Source: an uncultured cyanobacterium
Lineage (GTDB): Bacteria > Cyanobacteriota > Cyanobacteriia > PCC-6307 > Cyanobiaceae
Length of the DNA: 64,000 bases
Assembly: GCA_963697335.1 (NCBI GenBank)
Contig: CAVONQ010000007.1
Span: forward strand, 162,878-226,877
Direction: 5' to 3'
In this document: piece after piece, positions 56,401-64,000 of the stretch
Layout of the letters: the number at the start of each line of letters is the position of its first letter
How positions within the stretch are numbered: the first letter of the stretch is position 1
Made by a program: the position numbers

Positions 56401-59400
56401 CGGCAACTGATCGCCCCACTCCCTGCACCATGACATCAATCCATCCATCTCACTGCCACCGAGAGCAAAAGACTAAGAAATTTGAAAGCGCGCAAGGCAA
56501 CGGCGACAACGCACTAACCTGACAAGAGGCTGCCTCATTTTGCTGGAAATGACGTGGGCAACCTTGACCGATCAAGACTCCTGAGGTCATCGCCTTAGCC
56601 ATCAGCAAGGTATGCCGAGGTGTCATTCAAGCGGCGGTCTGTACCCAGCTGCGAACAGCTCACCTTGTCACTACGAGATCAACCCATGGCCACGAAGAAG
56701 CCCAACATCATCCTGCTGGTGACCGATGACACGGGCTATGGCGATCTCGGCCCCTATGGCGGCGGCGAAGGGCGGGGCATGCCAACGCCTCATTTTGATC
56801 GGTTGGCCGCAGAAGGCATGACCTTCTTCTCCTTCTATGCCCAACCGAGTTGCACCCCGGGCCGGGCGGCCATGCAGACGGGCCGCATCCCCAACCGCAG
56901 CGGCATGACCACCGTGGCCTTCCAGGGACAGGGCGGTGGCTTGCCCGCGGCGGAGTGGACCCTGGCTTCGGTGCTGAAACAGGGGGACTACCGCACCTTT
57001 TTCACCGGGAAATGGCACCTGGGTGAGTCGGATTACGCCCTGCCCAATGCCCAGGGCTATGACGAGATGAAGTATGTGGGCCTCTATCACCTGAATGCCT
57101 ACACCTATGCCGATCCCACCTGGTTCCCGGACATGGCTCCAGAGCTGAGGGCCAAATTCCAGAGCGTGACCAAGGGGTCCCTTTCAGGCAAGGCCGGTGA
57201 GGCGGCGAAGGAGGATTTCAAGATCAATGGGCAATACGTTGACAAGCCAGATGAAGGCGTGGTGGGGATTCCCTTCTTCGATGGCTATGTCGAGAAAGCA
57301 GCGATCGAATTTCTAGAAGATGCTGCCAAGGAAGAGCAGCCATTCTTCCTGAATGTCAACTTCATGAAGGTGCACCAGCCCAACCTGCCCCATCCCGACT
57401 TCATTCACAGCTCGCCGTCAAAAAGCAAGTATGCGGATTCGATTGTGGAGCTGGATGCCCGGATCGGAGCGATCATGAACAAGGTGCGGGAGCTGGGCCT
57501 GGAAGAGGACACATTGGTGTTCTGGACAACCGATAACGGCGCCTGGCAGGACGTCTATCCCGATGCGGGCTACACGCCATTTCGCGGCACAAAAGGCACC
57601 GTCCGCGAAGGAGGCAACCGCGTACCCGCCATTGCCTGGTGGCCAGGCAAGATCAAGGCAGGCACGAAGAACCACGACATTCTGGGCGGCCTTGATCTGA
57701 TGGCCACCTTTGCTGCCCTGGCCGAAGTCTCCCTGCCTGCGAATGATCGCGAGGGGCAACCAACCATCTTTGACAGCTACGACATGTCGCCAGTGCTGTT
57801 CGACACCGGCAAGTGTGAGCGGGATTCATGGTTCTACTTCACTGAAAACGAGCTCACACCAGGGGCCGTTCGCCTGAACAACTACAAGGCCGTGTTCAAC
57901 CTGCGGGGTGACGATGGCGCCACCACAGGAGGCCTGGCCGTGGACTCCAACCTGGGCTGGAAAGGTGGTGAGAGCTACGTCGCCGTGGTGCCCCAGCTCT
58001 TTGACCTCTGGCAAGACCCGCAGGAGCGCTACGACATCTTCATGAATAACTACACAGAACGCACCTGGGTGCTGGTGACTATCGGCGACGTAACCAAAGA
58101 GCTGATGAAAACCTATGTGCAGTATCCACCCCGCAAGATGCAGGGCGAGGGCTACTCAGGCCCCGTCACGCTCACCCAGTACGAACGCTTCCAGCACGTC
58201 CGGGACTCCCTTGCTGCTGAGGGCATCAAGATCACCCTACCCACAGGGAACTAGAGCGGGATAGGAGGCATTTCTGGTGTGAATTCAAGGAACGCTGTAA
58301 CAGATTGGCTGGCTCATGCCCCGTCAGGCCCCAGCAGGGCCACCAGCCTTCTGTAACCAATTTAAGTTTTCGAGGCTTCGCCCAAAAGGCCTGTCAAGGC
58401 AGGTGCCTGACGCAGTTGCCAGCACATGGAGGTGTGCTTAGGCTGCTTTGACCATGAAATAATCAGGTGTTACCGGACCCGGATAATCAGCGTTGCTTAG
58501 ACCGTGTTTTTACGGTTGTTGTGGGTCTCTAGAATACCTGCACGGCTAAGCAACAGCAAGCTCGAGCCGACACCGCCTGCTAGCCGAACGCCGTTCGTCA
58601 AGAACGGCGGTGCGGCTCAGCTAATCGTTAGGCCCATCAAAAAAGAGGAGAAACACAATGGCTGAAACATCTATCAAAAACGATGTCTTCAAGTTTGTCG
58701 CTTTGCGTCCACCTACTAAACGAAAGATCCAACCTCTATCACCGGGTCGCATCGTAGATACGCGACAGGTGAATGACACTCCTGTCGGCAGGATCATTCG
58801 GAAACTGGGAAGCAATGCCAATATGGACCGGGTACTACCCCAGGTAAAGCGACTTATCAACGAGAAGAACTGGTCCTCGGAGATTATCAGGGACCAGGAT
58901 GTAGCAACTATCGCGGCAACGTACCGAGCCATCGACGAGCAACTGCAGAACTTTTCTACTGAAGGCTTCGTCAAGTCGATTGAAGAGGCACTTGGTTCAT
59001 CCCCAAAAGACTTTATTCAAAGCGAGTCGGCAAATTATATTCGCGAGGGCTTGTGGGACCGATTACATGCCTTCTACCTATTAAATCGTGAGACTCCGGT
59101 TAACCTTGAAGAAATCATCGGCGGACTGCGCGCTTTCCACATTGTTGAATCGTTGGCAAACGGCGAGCAATTTAGTTCAGCGGATGACCTTAGAGAGGCT
59201 TTGAATGCCGTAGTACTGCTACCTAATTCACTCGTGCGCATCGCACCTGTCACGTCCACAGAGCGTCCACGCGTTCGCGAACAGCAGGAACGCGATAAGG
59301 CTAAACGTGAACATTTTGTTAGCCTTTGGGTCAGATACATCGAATTGAATAAAGCGGTTGATGACGTTCAACGACTAAATCCGAAAATTGAGGTGATAAA

Positions 59401-62400: not shown

Positions 62401-64000
62401 GGCGTTCTCAAGGACTTTTGGCGGCTTAAGATAACGATTAAGGACGGGATAGCGTCGAACCTGCCTTTAGAAGTAGATAAGACTTATAGTTTGTATAAGC
62501 AATTGACACTCATTATTAAACTGCTGAAAGCTATCGCTAGCCTAATTTTTGAAGTTGACTGGAAAGTAATCCAAATCTGCTTTTTAGTATTTCAGATCTT
62601 TACCAAGTGCGTTTAGCGGTTGATAGCTTGCGGGCTAAGTCTGTCTCTCGGCTACAAAAACCTTAAATCCGAGCAAAGAACTAAGGTGAAGAGTATTAAG
62701 CCTATTCTGGATGCTCTATCGAAAGTTTTGGATCGACAGGATGACAAAGTGATTTTGACGGTGACCGTTGATGGGAATCCGCATCAATTCATGTACGATT
62801 CCCAGAATTCGAATTTACTTGAGAGGCTTTTTATTTCTCTTTTTAATATTCACAGCCCTCGGAACTATGGTGGCAATATCGAGGTATCCCCTCCCTGCTC
62901 AAGTGCTAGGTACGGCAAAATTCTGGCCGGTTCAATTACTTCTCAAGAAATACGGAACTTCCTGACGTCCCTAGGCACAGCTCACCCGCTCGCAATGGTG
63001 TATACAGGTTGGCTAGAGGTCGGCCATATTGATGAGATTGCTGCCTTCGCCCCCAATCCAAATGGTGGCTTTTGCATTCTCCGCGCTTCGCCGAAACTAG
63101 CTGTGGACATGCTAACACGCCTCAAAGCAGAACAAGCTCGAGGGGTTCGGGTGACTCGATTTTTTGGGGAAAAAGTGGCACGCACGAATGCGCTGGTGGT
63201 GCCACTGATCCACATCTGCCACCAAACACATTTCGCCGAATGATCGAATCTAAAATCTATGATTTGAAGGGATTCGATCCGAAGAATTGAAAATACGCAA
63301 AGCCTACATTTGGCGATTTTGCCTATCATGATGACCGCCAGTTTCTGGTCTTCAATAAGCTAAATAATGTCAATGCACGTTATGCCGCCATGATTCCCTG
63401 TGCCGATTTGCTGACAATTTGTAGGGAGACTAATCGTACAGTCGAAGACCTATTTCTTTCCAGTAGTTATGCGTATGCTGATTTCACTGGATATGCCGCC
63501 TATTATGACGACGATGTATATCGAAGTGAGGCTGAGCCGTTTCGATTGGACAAGGTGTTGTCCCGGGAGTTCTCTGGTATTAGCGTATATCCACTCCCTG
63601 TCCTTTTCGATTGGGTTACGGATCTTCTGAATAAACAAACCAGCGCCATCATACCTTATGTGGTTAACTTTCAGACATTGGGAAAGCATGTTCTTGTTCC
63701 CCGACCTTGCGGTGCGCGTACGCCTGTCGCCGATGCAGTCAACTTCATATCGGACCTACTGGCTAAATGGAGGTATCCTAAAACTTCTGTCGACGAAAAC
63801 TACATTCGTTCTAGAGGCCTTGATAAAACGTGGTATTGGACCAGTGCCTCCGAGAGGGTCAATCGTGCCGCGATCGGGGCAGACTCCTACTGACTTCGAT
63901 CCTGAATTTGAAGAGCTGATGCGCTCTAAAGCCAATATTATGTACAGCGAAAATCTTCAAAATGCAGGTATGGAAGCTATTTCGCCGCTTCCTGTCCTTG

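Follow-up and report, generated by a model that had tools for sequence, protein, structure and literature searches.

At the end of one contig of an uncultured cyanobacterium, a low-G+C island carries a genuine two-gene antagonism module, in which a 968-aa protein of a large unnamed family (gene 1) is followed by an arginine deiminase of the protein-arginine deiminase (PAD) type (gene 2). The unit looks like an undescribed toxin-delivery route, and we see an even chance that the island is a horizontally acquired toxin module whose large protein serves as a pore or carrier for the enzyme.

Results

Genomic setting of the island

The window (the whole stretch of 64,000 nucleotides that was analysed) is the end of contig C7, of which C7:221508-226877 overlaps C1:1-5363. 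The features concerned are given below by window coordinates and strand.

about 58440..64000, past the end of window and contig to about C1:6000, unstranded: low-G+C island (composition profiles)
58464..58632, unstranded: multi-copy repeat of ~165 bp abutting the left edge of the island (sequence matches in relatives)
58645..58650, + strand: Shine-Dalgarno sequence GAGGAG, 7 nt upstream of the gene 1 ATG (sequence)
58658..61564, + strand: gene 1, 968-aa protein of the large unnamed family (ORF)
58658..59797, + strand: predicted N-terminal domain of type A, residues 1-380, mainly helical and more divergent (model)
58682..58714, + strand: N-terminal motif DVFKFVALRPP, residues 9-19 (conserved columns in the N-termini of 60+ members)
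59813..60403, + strand: most conserved part, residues 386-582, with a predicted extended hairpin on strands (alignments, core model)
60068..60139, + strand: amphipathic beta-hairpin, residues 471-494, with a YGP turn (column statistics on 145 sequences)
60569..60883, + strand: predicted jelly-roll or CUB-like beta-sandwich, residues 638-742 (pLDDT around 90)
60884..61561, + strand: aromatic-rich C-terminal alpha/beta domain, residues 743-968 (alignment invariants FEQAFEW...YPYFW)
61569..64000, + strand: gene 2, PAD-type arginine deiminase, interrupted by indels and truncated where the window ends (translation, comparison with C1)

Composition profiles place the G+C content of the island at 43-48%, against 66-70% in the 18 contigs of the genome, as the initial annotation had claimed, and the island is of foreign origin. 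Gene 1 was not found in the 24 same-genus and 16 same-class genomes examined, which supports the earlier proposal of a horizontally acquired two-gene unit, near-identical family cores occur in different phyla in a tree of the conserved core, and copies of the family are found on 13 plasmids, including a haloarchaeal plasmid with a patatin partner. The island is located in a variable region adjoining the tmRNA gene, and a search of the joined region for an att-like repeat of the tmRNA end returned only chance-level matches of 11-17 nt. The repeat at its left edge recurs with 88-97% identity at several sites of the nearest relative (G012), as well as in G008, G019 and G000:C16, and contig C1 starts at the right end of this repeat (58631). 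The ends of C7 and C1 belong together because only ~16 kb separate the left flank of C7 from the tmRNA flank of C1 in the complete genome of the closest relative that has one, and a mis-binned or chimeric island was rejected on the same ground. A promoter and terminator scan across the module yielded fewer sites than shuffled sequences did.

The two contig ends had been taken to be identical; the extent of the overlap stands, but its sequence is 99.5% identical, with 26 differing sites (BLAST: 15 mismatches and 9 gap openings in 5372 columns). Gene 2 holds 25 of these sites, and the single one in gene 1 falls on a third codon position, the same 968 aa being encoded by both copies. Accordingly, the second gene of the initial annotation is intact on C1, as an open ORF of 951 aa at C1:2939-5794, but not in the window, where frameshifts, the first of them at 61753, interrupt it and translation from 61569 meets a stop after 76 aa and many further stops. 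The window copy looks like an unpolished contig end, because short-read contigs from two runs side with C1 wherever they cover a C7/C1 difference: they match C1 at 62972, 63179, 63181, 63189 and 63194, and within the two clusters of differences at 63165-63170 and 63876-63882 they are changed as well.

Domain organization of the gene 1 protein

The 968-aa ORF expected from the earlier work was recovered at 58658-61564 on the + strand. Its N-domain, in which residues 30-250 are predicted with a pLDDT around 90, belongs to one of three homologous types into which the N-domains of the family fall, all of them sharing the DVFKFVALRPP motif in the N-termini of more than 60 members; a hydropathy scan detected no signal peptide after this motif. 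Conservation of residues ~380-968 is confirmed, whereas the view of the N-terminal 380 aa as freely varying gives way to three related types with a conserved motif. No signal peptide or transmembrane helix was recognized by eye or by hydropathy in either the gene 1 or the gene 2 protein.

In the core model, four long beta-strands are predicted within the most conserved part (residues 388-415, 419-447, 516-544 and 553-582), and between the second and third lies the amphipathic hairpin, whose arms, 471-481 and 484-494, alternate hydrophobic with small polar residues in the 145 sequences compared. Among 11-residue windows scored for beta-amphipathicity, those at 468 and 483 rank first and third, and windows 887 and 730 score almost as high; ordinary beta-sandwiches also have alternating strands. 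In the predicted structures, both full-length and core, the hairpin has a pLDDT under 50, and modelling four copies of this segment together (residues 1-225 of the A3 core) gave a score of 0.00, which decides nothing either way.

The beta-sandwich that follows is a generic fold, with FlhE (4qxl) as its best VIA-align match (Z 9.4, rmsd 3.1, 102 aligned). With the full-length and the core model alike, every match listed by this type of search is to such a sandwich (FlhE, Z 8.1-9.4), so that these searches hardly reach the helical N-domain or the domain at the C-terminus; for the latter, predicted in the core model with a pLDDT around 90, there was no fold match among those listed, all of which fall on the beta-sandwich.

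A large unnamed family

Gene 1 has no match in Pfam, NCBIfam, PADLOC or PHROGs, and its best profile match in the PDB has an E-value of 0.75, which bears out the lack of database matches reported earlier (Pfam, NCBIfam, PADLOC, PHROGs and PDB sequences); with the Pfam threshold relaxed to E<=1, only a chance match to DUF3206 appeared. The family itself is very large, and the earlier count was reproduced, with 3818 representative clusters at 50% identity for E<=1e-3 and 2264 at 1e-30. None of the best 120 matches has a Pfam domain, and all are named just 'hypothetical protein', as had been stated, but they are drawn from 930 matches among 8000 candidates scored and not from 337. Members occur in most bacterial phyla, both monoderm and diderm, and in at least two archaeal orders. 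In the ESM Atlas, residues 380-968 matched only unnamed clusters of the same family. Fused forms were not seen among proteins of 1695-4840 aa, a weak kind of evidence, and 40 long members showed only stray C-terminal additions (sub-threshold F5/8 type C, DUF3597 twice) and a DUF5648 insert. The portions consulted of the main texts of PMC13483458, PMC9424270, PMC7864903, PMC8826395 and PMC7073777 contain no description of this family or of its pairing with enzymes.

Pairing with toxins in other genomes

In order to survey the partners, 80 loci from the genomes of other species were chosen independently of the 78 used for the initial annotation, a partner being defined as an ORF of at least 100 aa on the same strand that starts -60 to +400 nt from the family gene. 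Such an ORF lies just downstream in 69 of the 80 loci, and its identity varies among toxin-type enzymes: PAD in 7, patatin in 5, PT-TG in 4 (one with CdiA_C), WHH/colicin-DNase in 3, Tox-MPTase4, EndoU, Het-C and OmpA in 2 each, and LodA, flavin amine oxidase, Amidase_3+SPOR and DUF1508 in 1 each, with one further sub-threshold match and 37 of the 69 having no Pfam match. The partner types of the initial annotation thus recur, but their counts do not (LodA once instead of 9 times in the new loci). An adaptor domain common to all partners was not found, and the patatin and LodA domains begin at about residue 10. In the present survey, the surroundings of 78 loci were compared, and apart from the partner nothing within 7 kb of the family gene is kept from one taxon to another.

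In the reverse direction, a profile of the PAD partner alone retrieved 35 metagenome loci, 28 of them with at least 1200 nt of upstream sequence, and the family gene lies upstream on the same strand in 25 of these 28, down to 24% PAD identity, the remaining three being short, weak PAD matches. The two genes are tightly, nearly obligately paired. Mapped on the core tree, partner type is mostly clade-specific, with 14 changes against a minimum of 10; the exchange of toxin-type enzymes proposed earlier therefore does occur, although more rarely than had been supposed.

Judging from their gene content, several relatives are textbook polymorphic-toxin loci. The 15 Flavobacteriia partners share an N-terminal region of ~590 aa and differ in their C-termini, and a SUKH-1 immunity gene follows the WHH partner in all three loci of that kind. 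Further downstream, two loci have EndoU cassettes, one has a YwqJ-deaminase cassette and one a PT-HINT protein. The SUKH genes, the common region of the Flavobacteriia partners and the 25 of 28 loci of the PAD-led search are new with respect to the initial annotation.

Gene 2, a PAD-type arginine deiminase

The PAD catalytic domain assigned earlier to gene 2 was confirmed on the C1 copy, which matches PF03068 with an E-value of 1.5e-35 and 123.4 bits, against a gathering cut-off of 25. The start codon is probably the ATG at 61575, in which case the gap to gene 1 would be 10 nt instead of 4 nt. The segments WLQDQ, GHIDE and HCGTN align with WMQDE, GHVDE and HCGTN of PAD4, the motifs in which the catalytic Asp, His, Asp and Cys lie, and on this alignment gene 2 keeps the catalytic set intact. 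In the eight PAD partners compared, WLQDQ and GH[IV]DE are present in 8 of 8 and HC[GA]TN in 7 of 8. The alignment with PAD4 is confined to residues 145-250, 433-514, 688-714 and 917-948; PAD_N and PAD_M domains were not found in gene 2, PF03068 being the only match at E<=0.1 and the PDB matches covering the catalytic domain. Beside the eight PAD-type loci, no conserved flanking ORF or immunity candidate was found.

Gene 2 thus has the same catalytic domain and motifs as the vertebrate and cyanobacterial PADI proteins (PF03068), but differs from them in its 951 aa with large insertions, in having neither PAD_N nor PAD_M, and in that its type nearly always lies downstream of a gene of the unnamed family. 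In the part consulted of a survey of bacterial PADI evolution (PMC8826395), the strings 'toxin', 'operon' and 'neighbo' do not occur, and PMC7864903 deals with PPAD-type enzymes, a family unrelated to the PAD considered here.

Discussion

Among known systems, the binary AB toxins with a PA-type translocase (anthrax PA with LF/EF, iota Ib with Ia, CDTb with CDTa) offer a close comparison, being likewise encoded by two adjacent genes and combining a non-enzymatic protein that has a very long hairpin stem and an amphipathic tip with an enzyme that modifies target proteins. In Foldseek, the PDB matches of the core model are led by the iota Ib pore (E 8.4e-4, TM 0.08) and CDTb (E 1.5e-3), with the anthrax PA pore at E 7e-3 and a probability of 0.8; these matches are weak (TM 0.08-0.10, probability 0.23-0.80) and fall on the lowest-confidence part of the model. 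None of these pores is among the 50 matches listed by VIA-align, all of which are to the sandwich domain. In contrast to Binary_toxB, gene 1 shows no sequence or Pfam relation to it and has no signal peptide, its domains are predicted to follow the order helical N-domain, stem, sandwich and alpha/beta C-domain, and one family is paired with a dozen unrelated enzyme families in archaea and most bacterial phyla. In the aerolysin and ETX-MTX2-type pore-formers, Ser/Thr-rich strands on a long sheet flank an amphipathic insertion hairpin; gene 1 has a pattern of this kind, but it has no Pfam match to them, and no such structure is among its listed fold matches. The putative pore or delivery role suggested in the initial annotation draws on the conserved hairpin, on a predicted structure with pLDDT under 50 at the tip, and on the weak Foldseek matches to binary-toxin pores.

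The polymorphic toxins (CDI, Rhs, LXG, MuF and others; Zhang et al. 2012, PMC3482391) resemble the relatives of the module in their variable C-terminal toxins and conserved N-region, and PT-TG, PT-HINT, SUKH genes and orphan cassettes also occur in Flavobacteriia and other relatives. They differ in that the conserved component here has an upstream gene of its own, from an unnamed family, that neither the partners nor the family protein were found to carry a known trafficking domain or signal, and that many partners, including PAD, are whole enzymes with no adjacent immunity gene; the PAD partner described here also lacks the conserved N-region and swapped C-terminus of the Flavobacteriia partners. 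The TANFOR toxins of Bacteroidetes, in which a new N-terminal trafficking region precedes swapped C-terminal nucleases, are single very large proteins tied to T9SS substrates, and the portion of that report consulted makes no mention of a gene of the unnamed family (PMC7073777). The partners surveyed here showed no TANFOR or T9SS C-terminal domain.

An intracellular abortive-infection system, in which the N-domain would sense infection and the hairpin, gasdermin-like, would perforate the producer's own membrane while the enzyme helps to kill the cell, is unlikely. It would agree with the lack of signal peptides in both proteins, with the presence of the family in archaea, monoderms and diderms alike, and with its patchy, mobile distribution on islands and plasmids; patatin, nuclease and peptidase effectors are also common in defence systems, and one patatin partner weakly matches PADLOC phospholipase effector models. 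Nevertheless, in the three modules compared with PADLOC 2.0 no model matches either protein, gene 1 and gene 2 as well as two further members of the family being covered, 32 upstream neighbours scanned include no typical defence genes, and PT-TG, PT-HINT, CdiA_C, Tox-MPTase4, SUKH genes and orphan cassettes are marks of secreted polymorphic toxins. LodA and amine oxidases, moreover, work outside cells, where they produce peroxide, and the OmpA-type peptidoglycan-binding ends of two partners suggest an extracytoplasmic site.

We regard as rather improbable that gene 1 encodes a release factor opening the producer envelope in some of the cells, in the manner of a colicin lysis protein or holin, and so letting leaderless toxins out, or an independent, co-expressed pore toxin making no contact with the enzyme. 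A protein of ~1000 aa with four conserved domains far exceeds the needs of known lysis and holin proteins, and nucleases with a cytoplasmic SUKH immunity protein must still enter their targets, for which release alone is insufficient. Such a factor would, on the other hand, account for partners with no common adaptor domain and for the missing signal peptides of both proteins; LodA-type oxidases do occur in supernatants despite having no signal peptide. Non-lytic, holin-dependent protein export is documented (PMC9527704). It is very improbable that gene 1 is a domesticated phage virion or tail protein beside an unrelated neighbour, the pairing reflecting prophage remnants. The 18 Foldseek matches at E<=1e-3 to predicted viral structural, minor structural and tail-fibre proteins (900-1200 aa) that would suggest such an origin have TM values of only 0.10-0.15, and although an XkdF-type phage protease is one upstream neighbour and one Flavobacteriia partner weakly matches tape-measure PHROGs, a tblastn search of 50,697 phage records with gene 1 as the query found nothing, no PHROGs match exists, the 78 loci compared here have no other conserved phage genes and the pairing with toxin enzymes is maintained across phyla. 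As a separate candidate, a maturation enzyme or chaperone for the partner was rejected, PAD, patatin, LodA and nucleases not being plausibly matured by one protein.

In the antagonism module that we favor, gene 1 would be the conserved non-enzymatic partner, in which a helical N-domain is followed by a long beta-stem carrying the hairpin at its end, then by a beta-sandwich and finally by the C-terminal alpha/beta domain. Gene 2 would supply the payload, an enzyme expected to turn arginines in target proteins into citrulline. As the likeliest mechanism, the 968-aa protein would oligomerise and its hairpin would enter a membrane as a beta-barrel, so that, acting like the B component of a binary toxin, it would either free the leaderless enzyme of the same transcript or bring it into a target cell. 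Pore formation or delivery by gene 1 is inferred from the hairpin on its long predicted stem and from the weak fold matches; oligomerisation, membrane insertion, contact of both proteins, the export route and the target are inferences as well. With no signal peptide and no predicted transmembrane helix in either protein, a way out of the cell is missing. The genome, which is 98.8% complete, yielded neither a contractile sheath nor a gp25 gene, and the module is therefore independent of a T6SS or contractile injection system. More tentatively, and with some doubt, the family could represent a secretion-system-independent, self-assembling beta-barrel translocase of ~1000 aa in Bacteria and Archaea, taking the adjacent leaderless enzyme into another cell. 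Its payloads would comprise SUKH-neutralised nucleases, phospholipases, oxidases that make peroxide and, in the present module, an enzyme that citrullinates, amounting to a prokaryote-wide binary toxin with a constant B component and an exchanged A component.

With thousands of clusters at 50% identity, the family is nonetheless nameless in Pfam, NCBIfam, PADLOC and PHROGs and has no solved relative, and its fixed place before recognised toxins gives it a testable role. The toxins that follow it include immunity-paired nucleases with no known exit from the cell. If the large protein is a delivery or release device, the trafficking of many 'orphan' leaderless toxins would be explained, by one system for archaea and monoderm bacteria alike, and, if the proposal is true for gene 2, protein citrullination would be a weapon of free-living bacteria. 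Cultivable carriers of the family are found in Aquimarina, Kordia, Flavobacterium, Chimaeribacter and Paenibacillus.

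The gene 1 family

The module is a two-gene unit in which the second gene encodes a toxin-type enzyme, and some of its relatives are classical toxin-immunity loci. The window holds the following features of the module and its immediate left border:

58464-58632: a ~165-bp repeat, intergenic, that adjoins the left edge of the island; multiple copies in this genome, among them C16:1874-2014 on another contig, and copies in relatives, at 88-97% identity
58658-61564, plus strand: gene 1, a 968-aa ORF with GAGGAG 7 nt ahead of its ATG

No real match to gene 1 was obtained in Pfam (at E values up to 1), NCBIfam, PADLOC or PHROGs, nor in a profile search of the PDB (best E 0.75), and a tblastn search against 50,697 phage records returned nothing. 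The large size attributed to its family in the initial annotation was borne out by the same counts in the representative library, 3818 clusters at E ≤ 1e-3 and 2264 at 1e-30. A word-indexed search gave 930 matches among 8000 scored candidates, the best 120 of which are all 'hypothetical' or unnamed and carry no Pfam domain. The family extends over most bacterial phyla and is also found in Methanoperedens, in Methanosarcinales and on a haloarchaeal plasmid; its cultivable carriers include Aquimarina litoralis and Kordia. Its conserved core comprises residues ~380-968, while the N-terminal part occurs in three homologous types: A (38 loci, gene 1 included), B (25 Flavobacteriia) and C (3 Bacillota). 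All three keep a short motif near the extreme N-terminus, DVFKFVALRPP in gene 1, with no hydrophobic stretch of signal type behind it, and transmembrane values were reached in no 19-residue window of the hydropathy scan.

The family gene is doubled in tandem in some Flavobacterium loci, and in one locus the 'partner' itself opens with the family N-terminal motif (L059, 9416-13087). The ORFs of ~1205 aa found upstream in L033 (1644-5264) and L041 (1649-5263) have the length of the family and are presumed, from that length, to be second copies. On the megaplasmid of the haloarchaeon Natronorubrum bangense (L087, 4291-9346) the annotation splits the family gene into two ORFs that overlap (4291-7734 and 7686-7901), and a patatin-like phospholipase comes directly after it.

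Partner genes and polymorphic toxin hallmarks

From contigs of one genome per species we took 80 new loci, the best among the 534 matches that were confirmed out of 599 found by pattern. The family ORF could be delimited in 78 of them, and 69 have a same-strand ORF of at least 100 aa starting between -60 and +400 nt. In these new loci the enzyme types listed in the initial annotation were found again, with different counts.

Pfam matches of the 69 downstream ORFs
PAD: 7 loci
Patatin: 5 loci
PT-TG: 4 loci, one also with CdiA_C
WHH / colicin-DNase: 3 loci
Tox-MPTase4: 2 loci
EndoU: 2 loci
Het-C: 2 loci
OmpA: 2 loci, one just below its cut-off
LodA: 1 locus
Flavin amine oxidase: 1 locus
Amidase_3 + SPOR: 1 locus, possibly merely a neighbouring cwlC-like gene
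DUF1508: 1 locus
Sub-threshold match: 1 locus, the ORF being actually a second family copy
No Pfam match: 37 of 69 ORFs

Clustering of all ORFs added one patatin partner (L039) and three Het-C-like ones (L005, L009, L028), and revealed no further gene within 7 kb that is conserved between taxa; no adaptor is common to the partners. Fifteen partners from Flavobacteriia have an N-terminal region of ~590 aa in common and differ in their C-termini (WHH, Tox-MPTase4 or unknown), a combination of constant N-terminal region and differing C-termini that defines the architecture of polymorphic toxins. A scan of 60 downstream and 32 upstream neighbouring ORFs placed a SUKH-1 immunity protein after all three WHH partners and, further downstream, EndoU cassettes at two loci, a YwqJ-deaminase cassette at one and a PT-HINT protein at another. 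These polymorphic-toxin-type partners have no known trafficking domain, signal peptide or T9SS C-terminal domain, and their sole constant neighbour is the family gene.

Near residue 417 the N-terminal region common to the Flavobacteriia partners contains a hydrophobic stretch (L038, 9058-11646), and the region shows a weak similarity to tape-measure families of phages (phrog_3336, E 4.5e-6). In all three type-C Bacillota loci, L015, L048 and L065, which have patatin partners, a WG-repeat protein (PF14903, eight repeats; 507-aa ORFs) is encoded 170-260 nt upstream on the same strand, and this protein might form a third component for that clade. Five other loci (L026, L031, L036, L077, L081) encode a shared partner of unknown type (265-495 aa) and, after it, a second conserved ORF that reaches 577 aa at most, an arrangement that may represent a three-gene variant of the module.

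Pairing and partner exchange

The pairing was also approached from the opposite side, with a profile built from eight PAD partners alone, which retrieved 35 metagenome loci. Upstream DNA of 1200 nt or more was available in 28 of them, and in 25 of these it encodes the family protein on the same strand, including cases in which the PAD partner shares no more than 24-27% identity with gene 2; the three exceptions, L118, L121 and L122, are all short, weak PAD matches. The end of a family gene is visible in one more locus with 805 nt upstream, and nothing of it in six with less than 900 nt. From these counts, this PAD clade is virtually confined to the second position of the module.

The initial annotation had described the partner as swapped among unrelated enzymes. 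Exchanges do occur, but only occasionally: in a fast maximum-likelihood phylogeny of the core (70 rows, of which 46 have a partner label, in 11 groups) the labels require 14 changes against a minimum of 10 and a shuffled mean of 30.6, and none of 200 shuffles was as low, so that partners are mostly inherited with the core. The PAD label accounts for three changes, two of them forced by starred branches. L039, with its patatin partner, is nested inside the main PAD clade; the branching of gene 1 and L004 relative to that clade is not resolved, within a well-supported clade of 27 rows that also holds a Het-C-like pair. On the tree, near-identical cores are found across phyla (Burkholderiaceae and Acidobacteriota; Betaproteobacteria and Chloroflexia), and the family gene and its partner are transferred horizontally as one unit.

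Gene 2, a PAD-type arginine deiminase

The ATG of gene 2 lies 4 nt past the stop of gene 1. AGGG stands directly ahead of this first ATG, and its position, together with the N-termini of homologues, suggests that the true start is the ATG at 61575. In the window the frame ends after 76 codons, with many stops beyond, whereas on C1, the contig that overlaps the end of C7, it is open for 951 codons (C1:2939-5794). Short-read contigs from two metagenome runs, covering 11 of 30 bins of the stretch, have the C1 version at 62972, 63179, 63181, 63189 and 63194, and also show indels and substitutions in the same two clusters, 63165-63170 and 63876-63882. Because of this agreement and these shared clusters we read the broken window copy as an unpolished contig end and not as a pseudogene, the first frameshift, at 61753, lying outside the covered bins.

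The C1 copy contains a PAD catalytic domain (PF03068, scoring 123 bits where the cut-off is 25) and matches human PAD4, PAD3, PAD1 and PAD2 in the PDB, with E values down to 4e-24. Since the match falls in four separate segments (residues 145-250, 433-514, 688-714 and 917-948), the catalytic domain is interrupted by large insertions; PAD_N and PAD_M domains were not detected. The motifs WLQDQ, GHIDE and HCGTN line up with PAD4 motifs which we take to hold Asp350, His471/Asp473 and Cys645, respectively, and they are retained in 8/8, 8/8 and 7/8 of the PAD-type partners. The enzyme is thus predicted to be active. No conserved flanking ORF was found among the eight PAD-type loci. PADs are known for their calcium dependence, and one explanation for the missing ORF may be that this dependence silences the enzyme in the producer.

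Predicted structure and possible mode of action

A full-length AlphaFold model of gene 1 (45 sequences) reached a pLDDT of 63, its confident parts being a helical N-domain (residues 30-250) and a beta-sandwich. The core modelled on its own, from 70 sequences of the loci (L040 was left out as a near copy of L038), reached 76.9. It shows four strands of ~28 residues (388-415, 419-447, 516-544 and 553-582), the middle two extending into a further hairpin with a tip at 466-499 of pLDDT below 50, then the sandwich (638-742) and a well-modelled C-terminal alpha/beta domain (743-968). In a diverse set of 145 members, hydrophobic and small polar residues alternate along 471-481 and 484-494, about a conserved YGP turn, and Thr, Ser, Glu and Arg abound in the hairpin flanks. 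These two hairpin windows rank first and third for beta-amphipathicity among all 11-residue windows, nearly equalled by two strands of the sandwich or C-domain. The first matches of the core in a Foldseek search of the PDB are binary-toxin translocases in their pore form, namely iota Ib (E 8.4e-4), CDTb (E 1.5e-3) and anthrax PA (E 7e-3), at TM scores of only 0.08-0.10, and VIA-align gave, among the matches listed, only generic sandwich matches (FlhE, Z 9.4). The pattern of hairpin and stem would fit a beta-pore-former.

We may hypothesize that the large protein assembles into a beta-barrel by means of its stem and hairpin, and that this barrel would either free the enzyme from the producer or translocate it into the target. 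The module would work most like a binary AB toxin; it falls within the logic of polymorphic toxin systems, but without any known trafficking domain, and gene 1 stands apart from the PA-type translocases, to which it has no sequence relation and whose signal peptide it lacks. No contractile sheath or gp25 gene was found in this genome, which speaks against reliance on a T6SS or contractile injection system. An intracellular abortive-infection system would suit both the absence of a signal peptide and the mobility of the module, yet we consider it unlikely, as it is at odds with the pre-toxin domains, the SUKH immunity genes and the orphan cassettes, with the peroxide-making oxidases and with the empty PADLOC result. 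If the large protein were only a release factor, or a pore-former acting independently of the enzyme, the absent adaptor would be accounted for, but the entry of nucleases into targets would not, and we give this little credence. Descent from a phage structural protein seems very improbable, being based solely on weak Foldseek matches to phage structural proteins among predicted viral structures (TM 0.10-0.15). We rate the module as a toxin system of which one conserved component is undescribed; to see in it a new device for delivery throughout the prokaryotes is a tentative and rather doubtful extension. Neither the family nor its pairing was found in the full-text literature searched.

Genomic context of the island

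The genome comprises 2.58 Mb in 18 contigs of 66-70% G+C, and the window is the final 64 kb of C7. Composition profiles give 43-48% G+C from ~58500 through the window end and low G+C up to ~C1:6000, with both flanks at 55-65%. The overlap reported previously between the C7 end and the C1 start exists, but the two copies are not identical: the last 5370 bases of C7 and the first 5363 of C1 agree at 99.5%, with 26 differing sites (15 mismatches and 9 gap openings in BLAST), one at a third codon position of gene 1, which yields the same protein from both, and 25 in gene 2. Gene 1 was not found in searches of 24 same-genus and 16 same-class genomes, several of them incomplete. The gene to the left of the island has a match of 93% DNA identity in G012, the closest complete relative, and the tmRNA region to the right of the island (C1:10889-11218) one of 95%; these landmarks lie ~16 kb apart there, from which we conclude that the C7 end and the C1 start adjoin. 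The island is foreign DNA and occupies a variable region beside the tmRNA gene. An att-like copy of the tmRNA end was sought and not found. The ~165-bp repeat occurs in at least four places in G012; its right end is where C1 starts, and it may therefore be the cause of the assembly break.

The tmRNA gene is of the permuted, two-piece kind, on the minus strand, with the tag ANNIVRFSRQTAPVAA. From this gene to the conserved left flank the sequence varies among relatives (~16 kb in G012); here it contains the island, three small ORFs without family matches and a cytochrome P450 (C1:8933-10633). Left of the island lies a sulfatase gene (56620-58254; PF00884, E 1e-41) of intermediate G+C (55-61%), which is not at the corresponding place in G012 and has homologues of 83% identity elsewhere in two other relatives, G002 and G019. 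It is preceded by an ORF of 1141 aa (52909-56334; 70-76% G+C, no Pfam match); nine or more genomes of the genus have this ORF conserved, with DNA identities of 83-93%.
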